Source: Escherichia coli phage AZ21. Taken from it: a DNA stretch of 64,000 nt. Under the pieces are notes generated by a model that worked only from the letters and a program-made list of their open reading frames with translations, was not told the DNA's origin and made no database searches. Position 1 is the first letter of the stretch, and the number at the start of each line of letters is the position of its first letter. The DNA lies in sequence record LC788708.1; one strand, 5' to 3'. This document shows, piece by piece, positions 4,416 to 47,968 of this stretch. The position numbers and the translations under genes are program-made.

Positions 4416-4945
4416 TTACAGCAATGTATGCAGTTGGGCCGAATGGGGAGTTCGGCCTCCGCGGTAAACTTCCATGGGGTTCCTTCAAAGAAGAACTAGA
4501 TGCTTTCTATTCTCAACTGGACGTATTAAATCCAGATAACATCATCATTGGTGCGGGTACTTATTTAGCTCTTCCATACGCCGTTAGAGAACGTATGATT
4601 AGGGCTTCTGACCTATTTATTCGTGTTGATCGTCCACTGCCAGACGATATTACGCATGATATTTACACTCCAATTTCTAAGATTGGGGATACATTACCTA
4701 CGTTTCTGAAAGATCAGCAGACAGTGGTTTTAGGTGGCGCAACATTATTGTACGAAATGTATATTCATGGACATATTGAGAGTGCTTTTGTATCCACAAT
4801 CTTTAGTAGTCAAAAACTAGAGGCAGATGTACATCTGGATAATATGATTCTAGATTACAACTATGAATCTACTCGTTTAGTTTACGCAACTGGCGCAAAC
4901 AGTGATAACAGCCTGCGATTTGTACAGGAATTGGTTACTTATTAA
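4412..4945 (+). CDS. frd: dihydrofolate reductase
   Basis: 177 aa; N-terminal GxxxxLPW and central GGATL pattern like FolA; start overlaps nrdB stop. Confidence 0.65.
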
Positions 4946-5799
4946 TGGATCAGTATATCGAAGTTGGAAAACGCATTCTATCAGATGGTCAGTGGGTAAC
5001 GAATCCTAGAACAGGGGTTCGTTGCCTCACTATTATTGATGCAGACTTTACTTTTAACGTAGGTGCAGGGGAATTTCCCCTTATTACTACTCGTAAGGCG
5101 TTTGCAAAACAAGCAATAATGGAAATGATTGGGTATCTACGTGGATATGACTCAGCAGCACAATTCCGTGCTATTGGTGTTAACACATGGAATGCTAATG
5201 CAAATGAAAACTCAGCTTGGCTAGACAATCCATACCGTAAAGGTGAGGATGATATGGGACGAGTCTATGGTGTTCAAGGACGTCAGTGGACTAATTCCGA
5301 TGGTCTTATGTTTGACCAACTAGCCAAGATTTATCATAATCTGAAAAGGGGCATTGATGATCGTGGGGAAATTCTAACCTTCTGGAATCCGGGAGAGTTC
5401 TCAAAGGGTTGCTTACGTCCATGTATGCACACTCATCAGTTCTCTATTTTGGGAGATACATTATACCTGAACTCTTTCCAGAGATCTAATGACTTCCTGT
5501 TAGGCCAAGTATTTAACATGGTTCAGTGCTATACGCTTCTAGCATTAATGGCTCAGATTACAGGCCTTAAACCAGGAATTGCACGCCAGAAGATTATCAA
5601 TCTTCATATCTATGAGGATCAGTATAATGTTTTGATGGAGCATAAGCAATTCGATCGTAAACCTTTTGCACCTCCTACTCTAGAAATTAATCCAAATATC
5701 CGAACTCTGGAGGATGTATTGACCTGGGTAAATAAGGATGATTTTACTGTTCGTGGTTACGAACACCACCCTGCTATTGCATACCCCTTTACGGTATAA
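4945..5799 (+). CDS. thyA: thymidylate synthase
   Basis: FWNPGEF and catalytic [10 protein letters not shown] motifs. Confidence 0.9.
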
Positions 5800-35109: not shown

Positions 35110-35118
35110 TTATCCACA
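35110..35118 (+). promoter_or_regulatory. DnaA-box consensus TTATCCACA
   Basis: Exact 9-mer; TTATCAACA variants at about 35122, 35171, 35183. Confidence 0.6.
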
Positions 35119-38157: not shown

Positions 38158-38929
38158 AAACGGTGCTTTTTTTAGCCGCTACTTTCGTGATTTGAGTTAG
38201 TGCAATTTTACCAGCTTCCAGTTTTGCAGCGTTTACAACAGCGGATTTATTAGCGGCAACGATATTAGCGATCTTGGTCATGGTATTTTTTCCTTTGTTT
38301 TCAGTAGTTTGAGTATTAACGCTTTGAGTGTTAGAGCTTACAACCTGTTTTTCAATATTGTCAACTGGTTTTAGTGTAAATCCAGCATTTGCAACGTTTG
38401 ATTCATTCCCATACTCTAAATAATCACTAGGGATCAACATGTTGCCACTAGCGCGTTCAAAACATAACACGCCAGTTGTAGAAATTACATTACTATCAGC
38501 ACTTTTGTAATTAGCTGATAGTTCACGCCAAATGCTAGTTAATAACGATCCGACACTATCAGTCCTGATATTACTTACTTTTGTTGCTGTTACTTGCTCT
38601 TTTTCTTGCACGTTATATAATCGCGCAATGTAACCACTATTAGATTCACTATAACCAACAATGATAAAATCAATATCTCTTCCACGTTGATTGCGGAAAA
38701 TGTGATAATCACGGTTGAAAATTACTAGCGCCCTTTTCTGGTCTAGTAATTGTGTGAAATCTTCAACTGAATAATGAGTACCCTCATCGTCTAAAATTCT
38801 ATCATGAATCTTTTCGATAATAGTAGCGGTATGCTGTACGCTTGCCGCGCTACTACCCTCTAACAGATTGCGCAAACTGCCTTTAATAATAGTGGCGTTT
38901 GCTGGTACTGCAATTCTTACAGTAGACAT
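38138..38929 (-). CDS. hypothetical pre-early protein (first gene of minus-strand block)
   Basis: 263 aa; RBS GGGAGA then ATG on minus strand. Confidence 0.5.
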   Translation of the reverse strand: MSTVRIAVPANATIIKGSLRNLLEGSSAASVQHTATIIEKIHDRILDDEGTHYSVEDFTQLLDQKRALVIFNRDYHIFRNQRGRDIDFIIVGYSESNSGYIARLYNVQEKEQVTATKVSNIRTDSVGSLLTSIWRELSANYKSADSNVISTTGVLCFERASGNMLIPSDYLEYGNESNVANAGFTLKPVDNIEKQVVSSNTQSVNTQTTENKGKNTMTKIANIVAANKSAVVNAAKLEAGKIALTQITKVAAKKSTVYDQRLY

Positions 38930-39195
38930 TTTATTTTGTCTCCCTCGTTAATCGGTGAGTGAATGATAAGGGTAATTTTCTAGCATAGGCAAATATTATT
39001 TTACTTTTTTATTTTCCTTGCCTAGCGTCTAATTTTATGCTAACCGCGCAGCGGTGCAATAAAGAGCAAACCACGGCGAAGCCACCAGCCCGACGCATTG
39101 AGGCTTTACTTTAATATTACCTTACAGCGTTTAGCTCGTTAGAATGCGTTTTGGGCCACTTAAAATTGATTGCAGTTGTTAACACTACCTTTCTA

Positions 39196-39215
39196 CCCTG
39201 TATATTTATACAGTG
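39196..39215. promoter_or_regulatory. LexA-box-like palindrome CTGTATATTTATACAG
   Basis: Exact reverse complement of the 35202-35217 core; lies upstream of the minus-strand block. Confidence 0.55.
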
Positions 39216-39224
39216 GAATAACCT

Positions 39225-39233
39225 GTGGATAAG
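39225..39233 (-). promoter_or_regulatory. DnaA-box consensus (TGTGGATAA on + strand)
   Basis: Exact reverse complement of TTATCCACA; second copy at about 39298-39306. Confidence 0.6.
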
Positions 39234-39554
39234 TCTGTGCAAAAGTCCTTATATCACCGCCTATCGTGTCAAGTTATTTTGTGCTGTGGAAAACATTGTG
39301 GATAACTTAAATGATAGTGCTTCTCACTTAGGCTAATGATTTCTTATAGTTATTATTTCTCATTAATTTATAAGTATATTATATATTATCAAATAGTTAG
39401 TTGGCTAATGAGATTTTCCGTGATTAATAGTCTGCTAATAATTCAGGTCGTTACAATCCACCAGCATGATTATCATTCTAGCAATTATTAGTCTGCTATC
39501 TTTCCGATACATACTAACAAATAAAAGTCAATTAATTTATTTCATAAAATAAGT

Positions 39555-39591
39555 AGTTATCCACTGGAAAATAAAAGTCAAGTGGATAACT
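39555..39591. repeat. perfect 11 bp inverted repeat AGTTATCCACT-N15-AGTGGATAACT
   Basis: Each arm contains a DnaA-box variant TTATCCACT. Confidence 0.8.
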
Positions 39592-39978
39592 AGGAAAATT
39601 TCATTTTTGCTTTTGGGGATAAGTTATCAACAAGGCTAGAATGCGCCTAAAACGCTCCAGAACGCGATGAAGTTTTTAGCCACCCCATCATAAGGGGATA
39701 GGCCGTTTATCGCTGCCACGAGCTTTTTAGATTTTGTCAAGTAGGGGAAAGCAAATATAAATGAAAAAATTACTTGCCTATTTGCTTTATTTTGTGGTAT
39801 TCGCGCCCGTTTCTTTTAATTTTAGGCCGTCGCCGGACGTGGTGCGGTGAATTTTGTCTTTACGTTTCTTTACAAAAATAAGGTTGCGCCATTTTCGGGA
39901 ATCCCCTATTATTTATCACGTAGGGCGGCAATGACGAACTACACGGCGGGAAGTTTACCGCCACGCTCTTTAAAAATT

Positions 39979-40002
39979 GGGTACATCTTAAAGCCTATCG
40001 GC
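39979..40002. repeat. left arm of 24 bp inverted repeat (GGGTACATCTTAAAGCCTATCGGC)
   Basis: 23/24 match to the reverse complement of 40247-40270. Confidence 0.85.
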
Positions 40003-40034
40003 GGTAAACTTATTTATTATAAGGAATCGACGAT

Positions 40035-40247
40035 ATGAAACAAACTTTATTGATCACTGGCAAGCCTATTAAGGCACTAGATAGCAAAACAAAAAATTTG
40101 TTGACAGTAGCGCAAAGATCGGTAAAATACCGATTCACGCAGTACAAGAAAGACCGCCAGCAAGGTTTAGAAATGATCTGGCGAAACATTATGATTGACT
40201 TGAAAGAAAATCATAAAAAACTGCAAAAAAATTATTTGACAACCTAG
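40035..40247 (+). CDS. hypothetical basic pre-early protein bracketed by the 24 bp inverted repeat
   Basis: 70 aa; stop codon TAG lies in the right repeat arm. Confidence 0.4.
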   Translation: MKQTLLITGKPIKALDSKTKNLLTVAQRSVKYRFTQYKKDRQQGLEMIWRNIMIDLKENHKKLQKNYLTT

Positions 40248-40270
40248 CCGATAGGTTTTAAGATGTACCC
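40247..40270. repeat. right arm of 24 bp inverted repeat (GCCGATAGGTTTTAAGATGTACCC)
   Basis: See left arm. Confidence 0.85.
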
Positions 40271-40391
40271 AGTTCGATAAGAGCGATAACTTGATAAAAT
40301 TTGACGGTCGGTGCTTACCATAATGCGCCCCGCCCCCTAACGGGATATAGCGGCCTACGTGGAGTTCTTTAAATTGATTATAGCGGCGAGA

Positions 40392-40445
40392 GGATTGTTA
40401 CTTATTACCTGCTAGTATTTTCTAGTAGGTAATAAGTAACAATCC
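40392..40445 (+). other. long hairpin, 24 bp stem (23/24) with 6 nt loop
   Basis: GGATTGTTACTTATTACCTGCTAG-TATTTT-CTAGTAGGTAATAAGTAACAATCC, just upstream of the next RBS. Confidence 0.8.
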
Positions 40446-40468
40446 ATCAAATAACTGGAGTTTATATT

Positions 40469-40720
40469 ATGCAAAACGTTATTACCGCGCCTAAAATTGG
40501 TCAATCCGTCTTTATTCCTTTCGTTACTAAAACGGATGAATTAACCGGAAAGGCCGAACGTATTAAAGGTGCGGCGCTTATGCCGTTCGATACAATCGAC
40601 GCGGTATATGCTGAAAATGAACGCAGTAACAACGGCAAGCCCGTTTTTAGCGTTCGCGTTAAATCCGGCGATGTTGTAAAGGTTGTTCAACGCAACGAAA
40701 AATGGGAAGCTGTGTTGTAA
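40469..40720 (+). CDS. hypothetical pre-early protein
   Basis: RBS CTGGAG then ATG; 83 aa. Confidence 0.45.
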   Translation: MQNVITAPKIGQSVFIPFVTKTDELTGKAERIKGAALMPFDTIDAVYAENERSNNGKPVFSVRVKSGDVVKVVQRNEKWEAVL

Positions 40721-40818
40721 TTTAGTGTTAACTTTATATCCCCCTTATTTCAGGGGGATATAACGATTAACATTAAGTTAATCTAATCCCTTAAATTAAA
40801 CTAATAGGAGTTTTTACC

Positions 40819-41226
40819 ATGACTAACGCAAAAACCGCAAAATTCGCATGGAATGAAGAAAACACTCAGAAAGCTGTTACCATGTACCAGCAGTTAATCA
40901 ACGAAAACGGTTTAGATTTTGCAAATAGCGACGGCCTGAAAGAGATTGCAAAAGCAGTAGGCGCGGCCTCCCCCGTATCCGTTCGGTCAAAATTGACCAG
41001 TGCAAAAGCCTATCAAAAAAGCGATAAGCCGCGTAAAGTTGGCGGCGGTAGCTCTGTGCGTAAAGCTCACTATGTGCGAGTAATTGCAAAACACGCTATC
41101 GATTCCGGTATTATCAAAGACGCCGATGATCTGGCAAGCCTTGAAAGTGCTAAACTGGAAACGCTGGACGCGGTGGCGCAACTGTTAGGCGTTGCCGATG
41201 AAGTAAAACAAGCCGTAGGTGAATAA
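40819..41226 (+). CDS. hypothetical pre-early protein, possible A2 homolog
   Basis: 135 aa; RBS TAGGAG; sits on the inner side of the A1-like gene with one small ORF between; name assigned by position and size only. Confidence 0.4.
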   Translation: MTNAKTAKFAWNEENTQKAVTMYQQLINENGLDFANSDGLKEIAKAVGAASPVSVRSKLTSAKAYQKSDKPRKVGGGSSVRKAHYVRVIAKHAIDSGIIKDADDLASLESAKLETLDAVAQLLGVADEVKQAVGE

Positions 41227-41316
41227 TAGTTATACCTTGCCCCCTTCTAGTGAGGGGGCACTAATATAACTGTTTAGCGATAGTTATTTTCTTCCCTTAA
41301 ATCAGGAGTTTTAAAA

Positions 41317-41514
41317 ATGGTTTTCTTCCCTACTGAATCTTTGATTCTAGGCTTGTTTATTATGGCGGCCTCATTATTGTTCGCTTATTTTCAGAATGAT
41401 TTAGATTCGTATTATTTTAAACGTAAATCTAAATTAGCAAAACGTTTGGGCTTGCTTTGTTTTATCGCTGCCGTTGCCTGTGGTGTTAGTTCGAGTCTAG
41501 TACCATTAAATTAA
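41317..41514 (+). CDS. small membrane protein
   Basis: Two TM helices; RBS CAGGAG. Confidence 0.35.
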   Translation: MVFFPTESLILGLFIMAASLLFAYFQNDLDSYYFKRKSKLAKRLGLLCFIAAVACGVSSSLVPLN

Positions 41515-41601
41515 TGTTGCAAATTATAACGCCTATTATTCGAGGCGTTATATTTGGCAATATTGCCATTATTAACCTAATCCCTTTAATGGAGTTTTAT
41601 T

Positions 41602-43272
41602 ATGATTATTTCCGCAGAAAAACAAACCGTTATCCTGAAAATGGCCGCTGATTTCAATTTCTACGGTAAACGCCTGCGCGCCACTAAACTGGAGGTCTGC
41701 GACGATATTTCAAAAGCGGTCTACGATACAACGAAACACTCCACCGCTATCTGCGACTGGCTGGAAGCAAATAAACCAGCGAAACCAAAAGCGGCAAAAG
41801 TAGCAAAAGCCATTAAAAACGGTGAGCGCCCCGAAGCGGCTGGGATTGTTTCTAGTACCGTGGAGCAGTGGGAAGTAAAACAAGGTAAACGCTTTATTAT
41901 TACATCGATTCAGAATAATACTTTCCCGCATAAAAACTTTTTAGCCTCACTGGAGCAATTTGCTAAATATATCGGGGCTGATTTGCTCGTTTCTAAGTAT
42001 ATTTATAATAAAAACGGTTTTCAAAATGGGGAAGGTGCTGACGGAATCAAATATGATTCCGCGTTTGATAAATATATTTGCAGCAAAAACGTGTTTTTGA
42101 ATAACCGCCGCTTTGCTTTCATGGCTGAAATTAATGTTTTGCCTACCGCAGATTATCCGCTTTCTGGATTCGCAGAAACTGCAACGGCTTTAAATATTGA
42201 AGGTCTGGCAATTGGTCACGCTAAAATTACCGCTGAAAGCGTACCAGCTTTAAAAGGTGAAGTAGTGCGCCGTATGTACTCAACCGGAACGGCAACGCTC
42301 AAAAACTACATTCAGCAGAAAGCAGGACAAAAGGCCGAGGCGCTGCATAACTTCGGTGCGCTTATTGTTGAGTTCGACGAGGACGGGGAATTTTTTGTAC
42401 GCCAGCTTGAAACGATGGACGAAAGCGGGGTATTTTATGATCTGAATGTGTGTGCTACTCCTGCCGGATGCTATGAAACATCGGGGCATGTTTTAGGCTT
42501 GCAGTATGGCGATATTCACGCCGAAAAATTAGATGAGGAGTGCGCCGCCGCGTCATGGGGGCATGGTGATACTTATGGGCTAGTAGATATTCTTAAACCA
42601 AAATATCAGTTTGTGCATGACGTGCATGATTTTACATCGCGCAATCATCATAACCGCGCATCGGGTGTATTCCTAGCAAAACAGTACGCCGCCGGACGTG
42701 ATAAGGTTATTGATGATCTTATCGATACGGGGCGCGTGCTGGAATCAATGGAGCGTGATTTTTCTCAAACAATCATTGTTGAATCGAATCACGATTTGGC
42801 GTTATCCCGTTGGCTTGATGATCGTAATGCTAACATCAAAGACGATCCAGCAAACGCAGAACTGTATCACCGCCTGAATGCTGCAATTTACGAGGCAATC
42901 GGTGAACATGACGAAACGTTCAACGTGCTAGATTATGCGCTGCGCAAGGTTGCAGGTTGTGAGTTTAACGCCATTTTCCTGACCACTGACCAATCTTTCA
43001 AGATTGCAGGCATTGAATGCGGCGTACACGGTCACAACGGCATTAATGGCAGTCGTGGCAATCCCAAACAATTTAAGAAATTGGGCAAGTTAAACACTGG
43101 TCATACTCATACGGCAAGCATTTACGGCGGGGTATATACCGCTGGCGTAGCTGGTAGTCTGGATATGGGTTACAACGTTGGCGCGTCAAGCTGGACGCAA
43201 ACTCATTTAATTACCTATGCAAACGGTCAGCGCACTTTGATTGACTTTAAGAACGGTAAATTTTTTGCGTAA
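41602..43272 (+). CDS. A1: A1-like pre-early protein, calcineurin-like metallophosphoesterase/nuclease
   Basis: 556 aa, the length I recall for T5 A1; metallophosphoesterase motifs YGDIHAE, HDVHDF, ESNHD, GVHGHNG, GHTHT; RBS AATGGAG. Confidence 0.75.
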   Translation: MIISAEKQTVILKMAADFNFYGKRLRATKLEVCDDISKAVYDTTKHSTAICDWLEANKPAKPKAAKVAKAIKNGERPEAAGIVSSTVEQWEVKQGKRFIITSIQNNTFPHKNFLASLEQFAKYIGADLLVSKYIYNKNGFQNGEGADGIKYDSAFDKYICSKNVFLNNRRFAFMAEINVLPTADYPLSGFAETATALNIEGLAIGHAKITAESVPALKGEVVRRMYSTGTATLKNYIQQKAGQKAEALHNFGALIVEFDEDGEFFVRQLETMDESGVFYDLNVCATPAGCYETSGHVLGLQYGDIHAEKLDEECAAASWGHGDTYGLVDILKPKYQFVHDVHDFTSRNHHNRASGVFLAKQYAAGRDKVIDDLIDTGRVLESMERDFSQTIIVESNHDLALSRWLDDRNANIKDDPANAELYHRLNAAIYEAIGEHDETFNVLDYALRKVAGCEFNAIFLTTDQSFKIAGIECGVHGHNGINGSRGNPKQFKKLGKLNTGHTHTASIYGGVYTAGVAGSLDMGYNVGASSWTQTHLITYANGQRTLIDFKNGKFFA

Positions 43273-43328
43273 TTAAATTATTTCCCTAGCGGCTTGAAAT
43301 ACAGCCGCTATTACAGGAGCTAAATTAA

Positions 43329-43607
43329 ATGGCTATTAAAATTAATCTTCCCAATATTAAAAACACCGCTGATATATGGTCGATTGATACTATATTGCGT
43401 GGCACTGTATACCGTAATTTAAAAGATAATAATTGTTATATTTATCAAAATGAATTAAACGGCCATATTTACATAATCGAGTCCGATGGTTTTTGTTCTT
43501 TTGAGACTGATTATGAAGCGCAAGATCATATACAGGCAAATGATATTCCTGACGTATGGAAAGAAACAAACCTTGCTTTTGTTGTAAGTCTTGAAGCTAA
43601 CAAATAA
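43329..43607 (+). CDS. hypothetical pre-early protein
   Basis: RBS CAGGAG; 92 aa. Confidence 0.4.
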   Translation: MAIKINLPNIKNTADIWSIDTILRGTVYRNLKDNNCYIYQNELNGHIYIIESDGFCSFETDYEAQDHIQANDIPDVWKETNLAFVVSLEANK

Positions 43608-43645
43608 ATTAAATATCTTATTAAATTAATTGGAGTTTTACAAAT

Positions 43646-44038
43646 ATGAAAAAGCAAAATATTCCATTCGATCGCGCTCAGTCTTCTATTGTTCTGGTTT
43701 ATTCTAATGGTGAGCGTTACCACGTCGAGGCGGGGCACGTTATTGATGAATTATTAGATTTCAATGACGCTTTACAGGTTACTACCTTTGCCTACACGCA
43801 AGGCCGCGCAAGTAGTTACATTAAGGCCGCAGGCGTTTATGTTGACACGGTGAAACAAGAAACGATTATCATCGACGCAGTAAAATCCGGTCTAGCCTTT
43901 GCAGTTGTCGCGCCTTGCCCCTCTTGTCTTGATGATCAGCTAACGAGTGCGAAAGTATACACCTGCGCGGGCATTCGTTCCCATGTATCAGGAGAGGATA
44001 TTAGTTTTATCGCTGATGCGTTGGCTTATGGTCTTTAA
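43646..44038 (+). CDS. hypothetical pre-early protein
   Basis: RBS TTGGAG; 130 aa. Confidence 0.45.
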   Translation: MKKQNIPFDRAQSSIVLVYSNGERYHVEAGHVIDELLDFNDALQVTTFAYTQGRASSYIKAAGVYVDTVKQETIIIDAVKSGLAFAVVAPCPSCLDDQLTSAKVYTCAGIRSHVSGEDISFIADALAYGL

Positions 44039-44118
44039 TAGTTGATTTATTATTGCCCGCTGATAGATAGCGGGCAATGCTGGATAAACTACATCCCTTT
44101 AATGGAGAACGTAACAAA

Positions 44119-44853
44119 ATGAATCAAGTTAAAACGAATATTTCCCGTAACTTCCCGCATATTTCCCGCGTCATGATCTGGGATCTTGATGGCACTATCG
44201 TTAATTCATTCCATCGTGTAGCGCCTTGCTTTGATAGTGAGGGTAATCTAGATTTAAATAAGTATAAGAATGAGGCTTGCAAACATGATTTAATAATGCA
44301 GGATACTTTATTGCCTTTGGTGGAATATATGCGCCAATGCATGAATGACGCAAATACTTTAAACATTATTTGTACCGCTCGATTAATGAGCAAATCGGAT
44401 TATTATTATTTGCGCAAACAAGGCTTGCGAGGGCGTGGGGATAGCAATATCCGCGTGTTTTCCCGCGACACGCTGCATAAATATTTTGAAGCTGATAAGG
44501 TTAGCGAGATATACCACAGTAAAGACGCAGTTTATAAATCGTATTACTTTGAATTATTTAAACAGCTATATCCGAACGCTGATTTCACAATGATTGATGA
44601 TCATAAAGGTGTATTATCAGCGGCGGCGTCATACGGATTTAAAACGCTAGACGCGCAAGCCGTTAACGATATTCTATCAATCGGCGTGGCATTGATAGGC
44701 GGAACCTTTATTGATGAATCTCTCGATGATGATAATGATTATCAGTTCCTAGCCGATCGATTGAAATTATGTTGGGAAAGTATGACCGAAGAAGAACGCG
44801 CAGAATATAGTTGCAGCCCGCAACAATATATTGAGAAATTAAAAGTTGCGTAA
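44119..44853 (+). CDS. dmp: HAD-family 5'-deoxyribonucleotidase (Dmp-like)
   Basis: HAD motif I VMIWDLDGT near N-terminus; 244 aa from the RBS-supported ATG; same CCCTTTAATGGAG leader as the A1-like gene. Confidence 0.7.
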   Translation: MNQVKTNISRNFPHISRVMIWDLDGTIVNSFHRVAPCFDSEGNLDLNKYKNEACKHDLIMQDTLLPLVEYMRQCMNDANTLNIICTARLMSKSDYYYLRKQGLRGRGDSNIRVFSRDTLHKYFEADKVSEIYHSKDAVYKSYYFELFKQLYPNADFTMIDDHKGVLSAAASYGFKTLDAQAVNDILSIGVALIGGTFIDESLDDDNDYQFLADRLKLCWESMTEEERAEYSCSPQQYIEKLKVA

Positions 44854-45017
44854 TAATTAAAGTTGAAATAGTTTCATCCTGCAATTAAAATGGTTGCGGG
44901 ATGAAACAATTACCCTGCTAATAGTAACGGGGGTGGCGGTTAGCAGACTAAGTATTCTCCCCCAACCCACTGGACACACCTCCATGTGTAATCCTATGAA
45001 ATTTGGCAAAAGTCAAA

Positions 45018-45263
45018 TTAGCGCATAGAAGGGTCATCAAACCTGTGCTCTGGTCTGAACTCACGGAATCTCTTCCACGACGCCCGAGATCCATCAGACC
45101 ACTCCCGCTCAAACTCCGCACGTTTCTCGTCAAACTTCCGCTCCCTTTCCGCAATCTCTCGCGTCACCCCCGCGATATATTCCCGATGCTTGTTAATTGC
45201 CGCAGTTGTCCCGAAAACTCCCGCGAGTATCCCGATAATAAAAGCAATTACAATACTAAACAT
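45018..45263 (-). CDS. small membrane protein
   Basis: N-terminal TM helix; RBS GAGAGGG on minus strand. Confidence 0.35.
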   Translation of the reverse strand: MFSIVIAFIIGILAGVFGTTAAINKHREYIAGVTREIAERERKFDEKRAEFEREWSDGSRASWKRFREFRPEHRFDDPSMR

Positions 45264-45450
45264 CTAATTCCCTCTCAATTTGCAGAATACGGGTACTATC
45301 ACAACGTTGCAGTAGTGCTAGCTTTTCTAGAGTAACTTGTTGTTGTTTTACCTGAGCTTCTAGAGTTTTTAGGCGGAGATACACGATACGAGAGACAATG
45401 AGGATTACCCAGACTAATATTACCATTAGTGTAATTGCCGCTTCCATCAT
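45256..45450 (-). CDS. small membrane protein
   Basis: TM helix; RBS GGAGAAA on minus strand. Confidence 0.35.
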   Translation of the reverse strand: MMEAAITLMVILVWVILIVSRIVYLRLKTLEAQVKQQQVTLEKLALLQRCDSTRILQIERELDV

Positions 45451-45553
45451 TTACGTTTCTCCAATAATAAGGTTTCAATTCTAGCTAAATGATTATCTAA
45501 AATACATTGTCCAATAATCACAATCCCTAGTAGTGCAATAATTACCCATTCCA

Positions 45554-45745
45554 TTAAATCCACCCCGCCATAGCTGCTAACCAAAAACCTACGAAGATTA
45601 GGAATAATACAAAACCAAATCCGTAAATATTAATCCACGCTTCATATACTTCTCCGCGTCTGTTCTTTCTTTTATTTGACATATCTTTCATGCTCCAATA
45701 AATGTGGTATCTGGAATATTTTACAGTTTGTGCACAACCAACCAT
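45554..45745 (-). CDS. small membrane protein
   Basis: C-terminal TM helix; RBS AGGAAG on minus strand. Confidence 0.35.
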   Translation of the reverse strand: MVGCAQTVKYSRYHIYWSMKDMSNKRKNRRGEVYEAWINIYGFGFVLFLIFVGFWLAAMAGWI

Positions 45746-45858
45746 GCTTGTGACTTCCTAGAAGGACTTCTCATTTTCTTGCATAGTGGTTTCTGCCAAT
45801 ATACCATCCAAAAAATAAAAAATTTAGTTTACTTGGATGTCGTTTTGCTTTATACTAA

Positions 45859-46125
45859 TTACAGGTAGTTAGATTGCTCTAGTTTAAATTTACAATCACC
45901 GTATTTAAGATCAAACTGACTGAGATCCCACCACCCAAACTTAGTACGGAGCTGTACTACTGGGAAGCGATCTCCCTTAATACGAACTTTTTGAACTTTG
46001 AGGCCATAATGTTCTTCTCCTGCACCTCCAAAAGATTTTACAAATCCCGTACAAAATGGTTTGGGAGCAGGTGCACAACCAGATAACATAACTGCGGCAA
46101 CTAGTGCAATCACAAACTTTTTCAT
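45859..46125 (-). CDS. llp: lipoprotein, Llp-like receptor-blocking candidate
   Basis: Signal peptide with lipobox LSGC; divergent from and adjacent to the receptor-binding protein gene; own early-type promoter. Confidence 0.6.
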   Translation of the reverse strand: MKKFVIALVAAVMLSGCAPAPKPFCTGFVKSFGGAGEEHYGLKVQKVRIKGDRFPVVQLRTKFGWWDLSQFDLKYGDCKFKLEQSNYL

Positions 46126-46156
46126 ATTTATCTCTCCATTTCTAATTTATGAATCT

Positions 46157-46185
46157 ATTATAGCAAAATAGAGGGATGAAAGCAA
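46157..46185 (-). promoter_or_regulatory. sigma70 early-type promoter for llp-like gene (minus strand)
   Basis: On minus strand TTGCTT-17-TATAAT then AGATTCATAAATT and RBS GGAGAG. Confidence 0.65.
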
Positions 46186-46210
46186 ATACATTTTTATAAT
46201 AGGAGATTAT

Positions 46211-47968
46211 ATGGGTTTTTTCGCTGGTAAGTATAGCGATGGTAAGACCGTACTATCTTTAAATACTGAATCTGGTGGTGACATTAATCGTCACTATAGT
46301 CCAAATGCCAATAGTATTTTTCATAGTGATATGCCATTTGTCCTAGTTGATGGTACTTATGAGTCTGGGTTAGGTGATGCCGGTAATGGGTTTTTTGTAT
46401 GTCAGATGCCCTCTGACATAATAAATATTAAATCTAACGATCCTGGTAGAGTTATACTAACTGCTATTGAAATTAATGGTACTCACAGAGCTTTTCTTAA
46501 CGGTACTCAGAGTAAAGTAGGTCAAACTATAGCTGCCACTCAAGCAGATCCTTTTAGATCTTTTGCTAGTGTTTCCCAGACTAGTGGATTTGCATTTGGT
46601 AATAGCCTGGCATCTGGTACATATAACTATAATCCATCTATAGGGCATGAAGAATCTATTTCTAGAAATGGTACTGGTGGAACCACCCTACATAGTACGT
46701 ATCATGGTATAGTTAGGCCAGGTGCAGGAGCTCCAGTAGGGGTTACTGTTGCAGAAGCTTTTGCACAGTTGGGTTTTCCTACTAATAGTAGTACAGTACC
46801 TATAGATGGTAATAATCAATATTACTGGGACCCAGGATGGATGTCTCCTTTAGGATCAGCACACAGAGGGCACGATTGGTTTTATGTTTGTAACTCTAAC
46901 ATACGTGGGTATGGTGGGGTAAGACAAGGTCTTCCTGGTAGTGTAAATACTATGTATCATGATGGTGGCAACAGATTTGTTTGTAGGGGTTCTACAACTA
47001 ATTTAGCTAATCAATCTAGTGATTCTACAATACTACAAGATTGGTATAACATAACTCCTACTAAGGTTATTTGGTACGTCTTGAATTTAAGATATTCTGG
47101 CGGCAATATGAGTATCTCTGGTAATCCTTTTACTGGTTCAGATATTCTTATATCTCCTTCTAATTTCATAATTAAAGGGGTTAGTCTTCCCAATACTGGA
47201 TACAAGTTTATTAACCAGAACGCTTTCGGTAACTTAGGTTATAGACCAGATATGGAATATATTGGAAATAATGCAGCGTACACTGGGGCCTTCGGAGATA
47301 CTACTGCAAGGTGTGAACTTGTAGGTTCTAGTAATGGGGGTTTATGGTCTCCTGTGGACTATGGAGGGGCTAAGTCTCAAATTAGTATTTACAAATTCGG
47401 AGCTGGTAAGCAATGGTACGTAAACTCTAATGATAATACTATCGGTAATGAACACGGGGTTGTTTGGGGGCCTTCAGCAGTTCCACTACGACTTTTTAGC
47501 GGAAATGTTGGTAGTTCTTACATGGGGGATGATATTACTCCCAGCTATCCAGGAACTGGAGATAGATACGTTGGTTTATCAACTATTGGGCTAGGTATAC
47601 CGGGTGGCAATGCTACCGTAATTCTTACCACTGAAGTTATATCAGGTAATCTTAACTGCGCGGGTGTTCCCGCTAATACATGGAATAACGGTGTATTTCA
47701 GGTTCAAGGAAGAAGAGCATATAGTTATAGTAATGGGGATGCAATATTTCATCAGATTTTAACATTACCAGTAGGGTATTTAGTACCTTTTCATACTACA
47801 TCTGCTTTTAGATACACACCTAACAATGCCCTAAGTAGAAATAGTTTTATATACACTGCTAAAAATCTGGGGAATGGAAATGTAGAGCTAGGGGTAGTTA
47901 TGCACGTAAGTTTAGGTAGTGCAGTTTTCCTACCTAGATTAAGAGTAACAGTTCAACGCCTAACCTAA
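46211..47968 (+). CDS. receptor-binding tail protein (pb5/Oad-like)
   Basis: 585 aa, Gly/Asn/Ser/Thr/Tyr-rich, adjacent to divergent llp-like gene. Confidence 0.55.

Follow-up and report, generated by a model that had tools for sequence, protein, structure and literature searches.

The window, as the whole 64,000-nt stretch of DNA analysed here will be called, comes from a T5-like phage: the region around the hairpin H1 described below is 100% identical to Escherichia coli phage AZ23, and many Tequintavirus genomes match it at 94-97% identity. The gene map was fixed by comparison with three annotated T5 records (NC_005859, AY587007 and AY692264), and the features of the locus are collected in Table 1. 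The two sigma-70 promoters found in the promoter scan align with the T5 features 'promoter P-H 22' and 'promoter P-D/E 20' (AY692264, 4664-4738), two experimentally characterised pre-early promoters, the first of which was found by primer extension to be active early in T5 infection (PMC7472727). Judging from the -10 hexamer, transcription from the P-D/E20 homologue would start near 40271. No terminator-like site was detected by the terminator scan between the two promoters and the ORF starting at 40469. The genes that follow are the pre-early genes of the first-step-transfer DNA, with P-H22 and P-D/E20 serving a leader and, behind it, T5.007, A2, T5.005, A1 and finally dmp. In T5, dmp, A1 and A2 were treated together with small genes as one likely operon behind P-H22/P-D/E20, and gene 007 could be deleted (10.64898/2026.04.02.716235). 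According to the same study and the T5 annotation, A2 binds DNA and A1 brings pre-early transcription to a stop. The products of T5.007 and hdi are domains of unknown function. The sequence GGAGT at the Shine-Dalgarno site of T5.007 was invariant among the aligned relatives.

Table 1. Features of the pre-early region in the window
Feature	Position	Strand	Basis and remarks
hdi / T5.008	40035-40247	+	comparison with T5 records
P-H22 homologue, sigma-70, TTGACA-16-TAAAAT	40101-40128	+	inside hdi; promoter scan, 11/12 matches
P-D/E20 homologue, sigma-70, TTGACA-17-TAAGAT	40236-40264	+	overlaps hdi; promoter scan
Pre-early leader (5' UTR), ~198 nt	40271-40468	+	leader alignments
H1 hairpin	40392-40445	+	arms 40392-40415 / 40422-40445, loop TATTTT 40416-40421
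ACTT, 5' side of the relatives' internal loop	40403-40406	+	alignment with BUCT632, TUMS_E3 and L003
Shine-Dalgarno GGAG of T5.007	40457-40460	+	read from the sequence; ATG 40469
T5.007 homologue, 83 aa, DUF7177	40469-40720	+	comparison with T5 records
H2, ~8 + 12 bp composite, no U-tract	40725-40773	+	T5.007-A2 gap; fold z = -6.3
Motif TCCCTTAAAT (TCCCTTWAAT)	40787-40796	+	between H2 and the A2 Shine-Dalgarno
A2	40819-41226	+	comparison with T5 records
H3, 10 + 9 bp composite	41225-41274	+	A2-T5.005 gap; position of T5 'palindrome B'
TCCCTTWAAT, further copies	41293-41302, 41581-41590, 44094-44103	+	each between a hairpin and a Shine-Dalgarno
T5.005	41317-41514	+	comparison with T5 records
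H4, 9 + 2 + 10 bp	41512-41565	+	T5.005-A1 gap
A1	41602-43272	+	comparison with T5 records
Two small ORFs, then dmp	3' of A1	+	comparison with T5 records
H6, 5 + 5 + 12 bp (T5 'palindrome A')	44039-44091	+	T5.002-dmp gap
H7, 17-bp hairpin	44871-44907	+	after dmp; no U-tract in the window

The two 24-nt arms of H1 are 96% complementary, the lone non-complementary position being G40411 opposite T40426. As RNA all 24 positions pair (23 Watson-Crick pairs and G40411·U40426), and the stem can be extended to 26 pairs by G40390-C40448 and A40391-U40447 if A40446 is left as a bulge. Folding of the 111-nt context gave a minimum free energy of -39.3 kcal/mol, compared with -17.2 ± 3.3 for 200 dinucleotide shuffles (z = -6.6; none of the 200 was as good). 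Among all 64-nt folds on both strands of the 64 kb, H1 ranked first with -39.0 kcal/mol, whereas the background mean was -10.3 (sd 4.3) and the next unrelated site reached -32.0; the antisense strand of H1 gave -33.5 kcal/mol. The hairpin lies ~120 nt downstream of the P-D/E20 homologue, and its stem ends 11 nt before the Shine-Dalgarno sequence and 23 nt before the ATG. An earlier, sequence-only reading of this DNA had described a 24-bp stem with a TATTTT loop at this place, called it unusually stable and labelled the gene behind it pre-early. All three points were confirmed, with one pair being G·U and the gene being the T5.007 homologue followed by A2, T5.005 and A1; the 20 nt given there as the distance from stem to ribosome-binding site had to be corrected to the 11 nt above. 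That reading had also noted that H1 has no U-tract and is no classical terminator, and this holds: no T-run follows the stem (tail ATCAAATAACTGG / ATCAAATAAC), and the terminator scan gave no match at H1. H1 shares with intrinsic terminators a stable stem-loop at a gene boundary, but its stem is AU-rich (32% G+C) and far longer than typical; an intrinsic terminator was therefore rejected.

A permissive Rfam scan of 38500-46500 yielded no family reaching its gathering threshold; the sub-threshold microRNA-precursor look-alikes (~25 bits, thresholds 47-90) reflected generic long-hairpin shape. Leader folds masking the T5.007 Shine-Dalgarno were weak and G·U-rich in single-sequence folds and found no support in the consensus fold of 11 leaders, which retained only H1 and small G+C-rich stems.

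Regions 5' of T5.007 homologues were collected from 37 IMG/VR loci, 18 metagenome contigs, Klebsiella phages and GenBank records. They contained 42 distinct H1 variants, all built on one plan. A lower stem of 7-8 bp (GGATTxT… / …AxAATCC) is followed, in a constant position, by an internal loop or mismatches, in the typical case ACTT facing GCGG; above these come an upper stem of 10-13 bp, most often 12, and a terminal loop of 4-13 nt, and the ATG lies ~20-24 nt beyond the hairpin. The core hairpin comprises 17-24 pairs in most of the 42 variants, and a few more if flanking pairs are included. At least five unrelated upper-stem sequences were found, all of them paired (ATTACCTGCTA, AATAGCGTTTC, GTTAACACTCTA, GTAACTGATTAG and GTTGCTGATTAG). 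Compensatory changes maintain the two-part architecture in T5-like phages of Escherichia and Salmonella and in related Klebsiella phages, and it is kept in those Klebsiella phages and metagenomic relatives in which T5.007 is 57-76% identical and the stem sequences are unrelated. No H1 hairpin was found beside the T5.007-like genes of Vibrio phage L048 and of the 149-kb Klebsiella phage L043. These distant homologues stand in other contexts; therefore the element belongs with the T5-type pre-early operon rather than with the gene.

Covariation was analysed with 22 distinct sequences; the formal pair counts do not include the Klebsiella hairpins, which MAFFT misplaced. Double changes were observed in 11 of the 24 pairs of H1, compared with 4.8 ± 1.4 in shuffled data (none of 500 shuffles reached 11), and the covariation score was 0.188 against 0.084, values to be read with the reservation that the sequences are phylogenetically related and that kinship inflates shuffle-based statistics. 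In the proper register 88% of the cells were paired, in slid registers 34-55%. Some of the covariation may have a mutational origin, because palindromes can gain 'compensatory' changes by template switching without selection on the RNA. In the closely related phages L035 and L038 the flanks are identical for 40 nt on either side and A2 is 94% identical, and the ~17 differences in 35 nt (1430-1470) are confined to the upper stem, whose pairing is preserved in both. This is a cassette-like replacement, not point-by-point drift, for which recombination, template switching or diversifying selection are possible causes.

Evidence on the strand came from the nine core pairs of the upper stem. In the 22 sequences no unpaired cell occurred among them, and all non-Watson-Crick pairs were G·U or U·G, which on the complementary strand are C·A mismatches. 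Read as DNA, these exceptions would be G·T/A·C mismatches, which a DNA hairpin would not tolerate and which would leave a DNA palindrome asymmetric. Moreover, the sense fold was better than the antisense fold in 20 of 26 variants of H1, in all 25 variants of H2 and in 19 of 21 variants of H4, counts obtained with related sequences and thus not independent trials, though they all point the same way. The G·U pattern together with the sense bias favours selection on the transcript and argues against a symmetric DNA site. Taking these comparisons together, it is very probable that a functional RNA structure is formed by the sense strand.

The perfect stem of the window is a different matter. Among 50,697 phage records only AZ23 matched the 91-nt hairpin region at 99% or more; the next best match was 91%, despite 94-97% identity in the surrounding 1.5 kb. 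The window's ACTT (Table 1) pairs with AAGT at 40431-40434, where the relatives have GCGG. The close relative BUCT632 shares its upper stem and loop with AZ23 but retains the GCGG internal loop. The change from GCGG to AAGT in AZ23 amounts to three substitutions in four bases and creates the exact complement of ACTT. The uninterrupted 24-bp stem is thus unique to AZ23, and since the relatives carry an interrupted stem of ~8 + 12 bp, the 24 perfect pairs are not the conserved state. The substitutions are a recent local change, most likely brought about by template switching within the quasi-palindrome during replication. Corrections of this kind are an established outcome of template switching in quasi-palindromes.

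Composite hairpins without a U-tract were found in most intergenic gaps of the pre-early operon, and five of the operon hairpins, H1 included, were among the most stable folds of the window in the 64-nt scan. When the 64 kb were searched with a covariance model built from H1 only, the best non-self sites were H6 (29.6 bits, E = 1.5e-5 for 64 kb) and then H2 (21.5 bits, third-ranked distinct site in the window), both on the sense strand. H6, the T5 palindrome A, is by its sequence a paralogue of H1 (T5 H6 UUAUUACCCGCU…AGCGGGUAAUGCUGAA compared with UUAUUACCUGC…GCAGGUAAUGCGGAA in H1), and the 3' side of the internal loop is conserved (AAUGCGGAA in H1, AAUGCUGGA in H6). At one upper-stem position of H2 all four base pairs were found across the relatives. 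H4 is conserved by sequence and not by covariation, its upper stem being conserved even in Klebsiella phages, which is a hint that some of the operon hairpins are read sequence-specifically by something else. The hairpins are accompanied by the conserved single-stranded motif TCCCTTWAAT, copies of which precede the GGAG of A2, T5.005, A1 and dmp. Four of its five exact matches in the 64 kb lie in this 3.4-kb operon, on one strand, and a degenerate copy is found at 40441-40454. The motif may act as a signal in translation or in processing.

Palindromes A and B of T5 were reportedly annotated by Wang et al. in 2005. They share operon, strand and intergenic position with the hairpins described here, but unlike H1 they are annotated (AY587007), as DNA palindromes only and with no function proposed. 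H1 carries no annotation in NC_005859, AY587007 or AY692264, because the T5 copy is interrupted, and it is not listed among the repeats of AY587007 (IRA-IRD, palA-palJ) or in Repeat Regions 1-3 of the Davison preprint, where it falls just outside Repeat Region 1 (4682-5310). Nor is it mentioned elsewhere in that preprint, a catalogue of the repeats of the T5 terminal repeat region (10.1101/866236).

Some of the gaps can adopt more than one structure. In the T5.007-A2 gap, GATTAAC…GTTAATC (40764-40784) can form a 7-bp hairpin competing with the 3' strand of the H2 lower stem, and both structures appear in the folds of relatives. The A2-T5.005 gap occurs among relatives in two forms, the 10 + 9 bp composite of the window or a short 9-bp GGGG/CCCC hairpin, the latter being the 'palindrome B' of T5 (L044 3690-3725, - strand). 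Around H4, CCATTAAA at the end of T5.005 (41503-41510) is the exact complement of TTTAATGG (41586-41593), which overlaps the A1 Shine-Dalgarno (GGAG 41591-41594); a helix closed in this way could keep the ribosome-binding site of the essential A1 hidden as long as the region stays unprocessed. The dmp ORF, called mechanically from 44077 (to 44853), would start within H6; the T5 annotation and GGAG at 44105-44108 indicate ATG 44120 as the true start.

Substrates of E. coli RNase III typically span two turns, ~20-22 bp, with a minimum distance of 11 bp between cut and loop; internal loops confine the cleavage to one strand and leave a protective 3' hairpin, whereas the engineered, fully paired R1.1[WC] is cut in both strands (Pertzev and Nicholson, PMC1540722). 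By homology with the T5 promoters, H1 lies within the transcribed strand of an RNA made in vivo. Its 24-26 pairs in the window correspond to about two turns. The upper stem measures 10-13 bp in all variants despite their unrelated sequences, the helix being continuous in the window, and a strand-restricting internal loop (1x1 to 4x4) was seen in every relative examined but not in the window. As a fully paired site is still a type of substrate, the missing loop alters the expected pattern of cutting and not the eligibility of the hairpin. In a loose check by eye the pairs next to the loop (U·G, A-U, U-A, U-A, A-U, C-G) were AU-rich, as preferred, and compatible with a proximal box, in which G-C is disfavoured at positions 2 and 4, and the top pairs U-A and A-U were not the canonical UA/UG of a distal box.

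The T7 sites R0.3, R0.5, R1, R1.1 and R1.3 were folded from coordinates that we take to be those of Dunn and Studier. All five gave a lower stem of 6-8 bp, an internal loop and an upper stem of 9-13 bp. The hairpins of the T5-type operon thus resemble the T7 early RNase III sites in their two-part stem with ~11-12 bp in the upper part, in spanning about two turns and in having no U-tract, and also in their setting: tandem, very strong promoters for the host RNA polymerase, one site in the leader just ahead of the first gene, and others in the gaps between genes. There is no sequence similarity between the two sets, the motif TCCCTTWAAT accompanies the T5-type hairpins, and the window's H1 with its zipped-up loop would be a natural counterpart of R1.1[WC]. 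The RNase III site in the N leader of phage lambda is, like H1, a long hairpin in the leader of an early gene, close 5' of a ribosome-binding site; there the structure affects translation of N and interacts with nutL and N. We know of no equivalents of these partners for H1.

The span of about two turns, the constant 11-12 bp spacing to the loop, the internal loop, the missing U-tract and the placement are all consistent with H1 being a host RNase III processing signal like those of the T7 early RNA, an interpretation by analogy to which we give about an even chance. No paper connecting T5 with RNase III was found in the literature searched. If H1 is such a signal, RNase III would bind about two turns of its helix. 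In most relatives a single cut would be expected at the internal loop, ~12 bp below the terminal loop, and in the AZ23-type hairpin both strands would be cut. The hairpins of AZ23 and BUCT632, which differ only in the open internal loop, offer a natural pair for comparing single- and double-strand cleavage. Cleavage would free the long leader from the coding RNA, and T5.007 would keep a short 5' leader of defined length, ~25-35 nt. At the other hairpins the polycistronic RNA would be divided into units that end in protective 3' hairpins. Since T5.007 is dispensable, a role confined to this gene would matter little.

[quoted passage not shown] Should the hairpins prove to be cut by RNase III, T5 would be a further phage, after T7, T3 and lambda, to have its first transcripts cut up by the host enzyme, and the unexplained palindromes A and B would be accounted for. 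H1 would then be an early-RNA processing signal of a well-known kind, a modest surprise. Since P-D/E20 and P-H22 rank with the strongest E. coli promoters known, there is a practical side: their native leader may affect the yield and stability of the RNA made from expression constructs.

Whatever speaks for a conserved structure of the sense strand speaks just as much for a function other than RNase III cleavage, and this is a tentative but real possibility. The hairpins could act as barriers to 3' exonucleases, stabilising RNA ends cut by RNase E in adjacent AU-rich stretches, or as binding sites for a host or phage protein that governs translation or the A1-dependent silencing of the pre-early genes. 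The conservation of TCCCTTWAAT, of the H4 upper stem and of the 3' side of the internal loop suggests sequence-specific recognition. On the other hand, an exonuclease barrier needs neither a constant upper stem of ~12 bp nor a fixed internal loop nor a span of about two turns, all of which RNase III measures, and for an RNA-binding protein no candidate was identified. More doubtful, in our judgement improbable, is the related proposal that hairpins and TCCCTTWAAT together constitute a T5-specific module of post-transcriptional control with a reader other than RNase III. They would then be, for example, the RNA on which A1 or a different pre-early product acts to shut off pre-early expression or to time the translation of A2 and A1, and the rapid, cassette-like exchange of upper stems would mean changing specificity or evasion of host defence.

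The sequence-only reading had named an RNA processing site, an attenuator and a palindromic operator as alternatives, the first of which gained from the covariation, the sense bias and the T7-like size and architecture, while the other two lost ground. A palindromic operator for a dimeric DNA-binding protein would suit a near-perfect inverted repeat 3' of very strong promoters in an operon whose product A2 binds DNA and whose product A1 shuts off pre-early transcription, and operator half-sites would co-vary too. Nevertheless, it is very unlikely: the arms differ by G·T-type asymmetries that are tolerated only as G·U in RNA, most variants have the better fold on the sense strand, covariation extends over all 11-12 positions of each arm and is not limited to a short core, the upper stems of L035 and L038 are wholly different at nearly the same A2, and in most phages a 4 x 4 mismatch breaks the palindrome. 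An attenuator, pause site or leaky terminator limiting read-through from P-H22/P-D/E20 must be rated highly unlikely. A very stable nascent hairpin in a leader would fit such a device, and equivalents of H2 in phage BB1 and of H7 in T5 are annotated as terminator (in T5 as a putative one). But besides the missing U-tract and the negative terminator scan, the essential genes A2 and A1 lie downstream with no promoter of their own detected in between, and neither a conserved anti-terminator or other alternative pairing nor a conserved leader peptide was found. The one candidate peptide, a TTG frame from 40374 to a TAG in the stem (40413-40415), was rejected; indels in relatives break it (TT insertion in L009 and L012). 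That H1 has no function of its own, being a palindrome kept or perfected by template-switch mutation while hitch-hiking in a conserved leader, is hardly credible, for although the AZ23 substitutions and the L035/L038 swap are concerted multi-base changes at H1, the architecture persists in distant relatives with unrelated stems and a sense-favouring G·U bias is not expected from a purely DNA-level process.

The leader itself has features of its own. Upstream of H1 (40271-40391) it is almost invariant in T5-group phages, more so than coding sequence, and holds small G+C-rich stems such as CCCGCCCCCTAACGGG…GCGG around 40329-40354; the L035/L038 group has another, shorter leader and retains H1. 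Cut off from the coding RNA, it could form an abundant small RNA. The T5 'inverted repeat A/A'' has its match in a 39-nt inverted repeat with 85% complementarity (39964-40002 / 40247-40285), which flanks hdi on both sides, overlapping the P-D/E20 promoter; both arms would be in one RNA only if transcription started at a promoter further upstream. Still further upstream, four consensus DnaA boxes are located at 39224-39305 on the - strand, in two pairs with 3 bp within a pair and ~52 nt between the pairs, a layout that matches the 'IRC-spacer-IRD' tied by Davison to the injection-stop signal of T5. A further consensus DnaA box is present at 35110.
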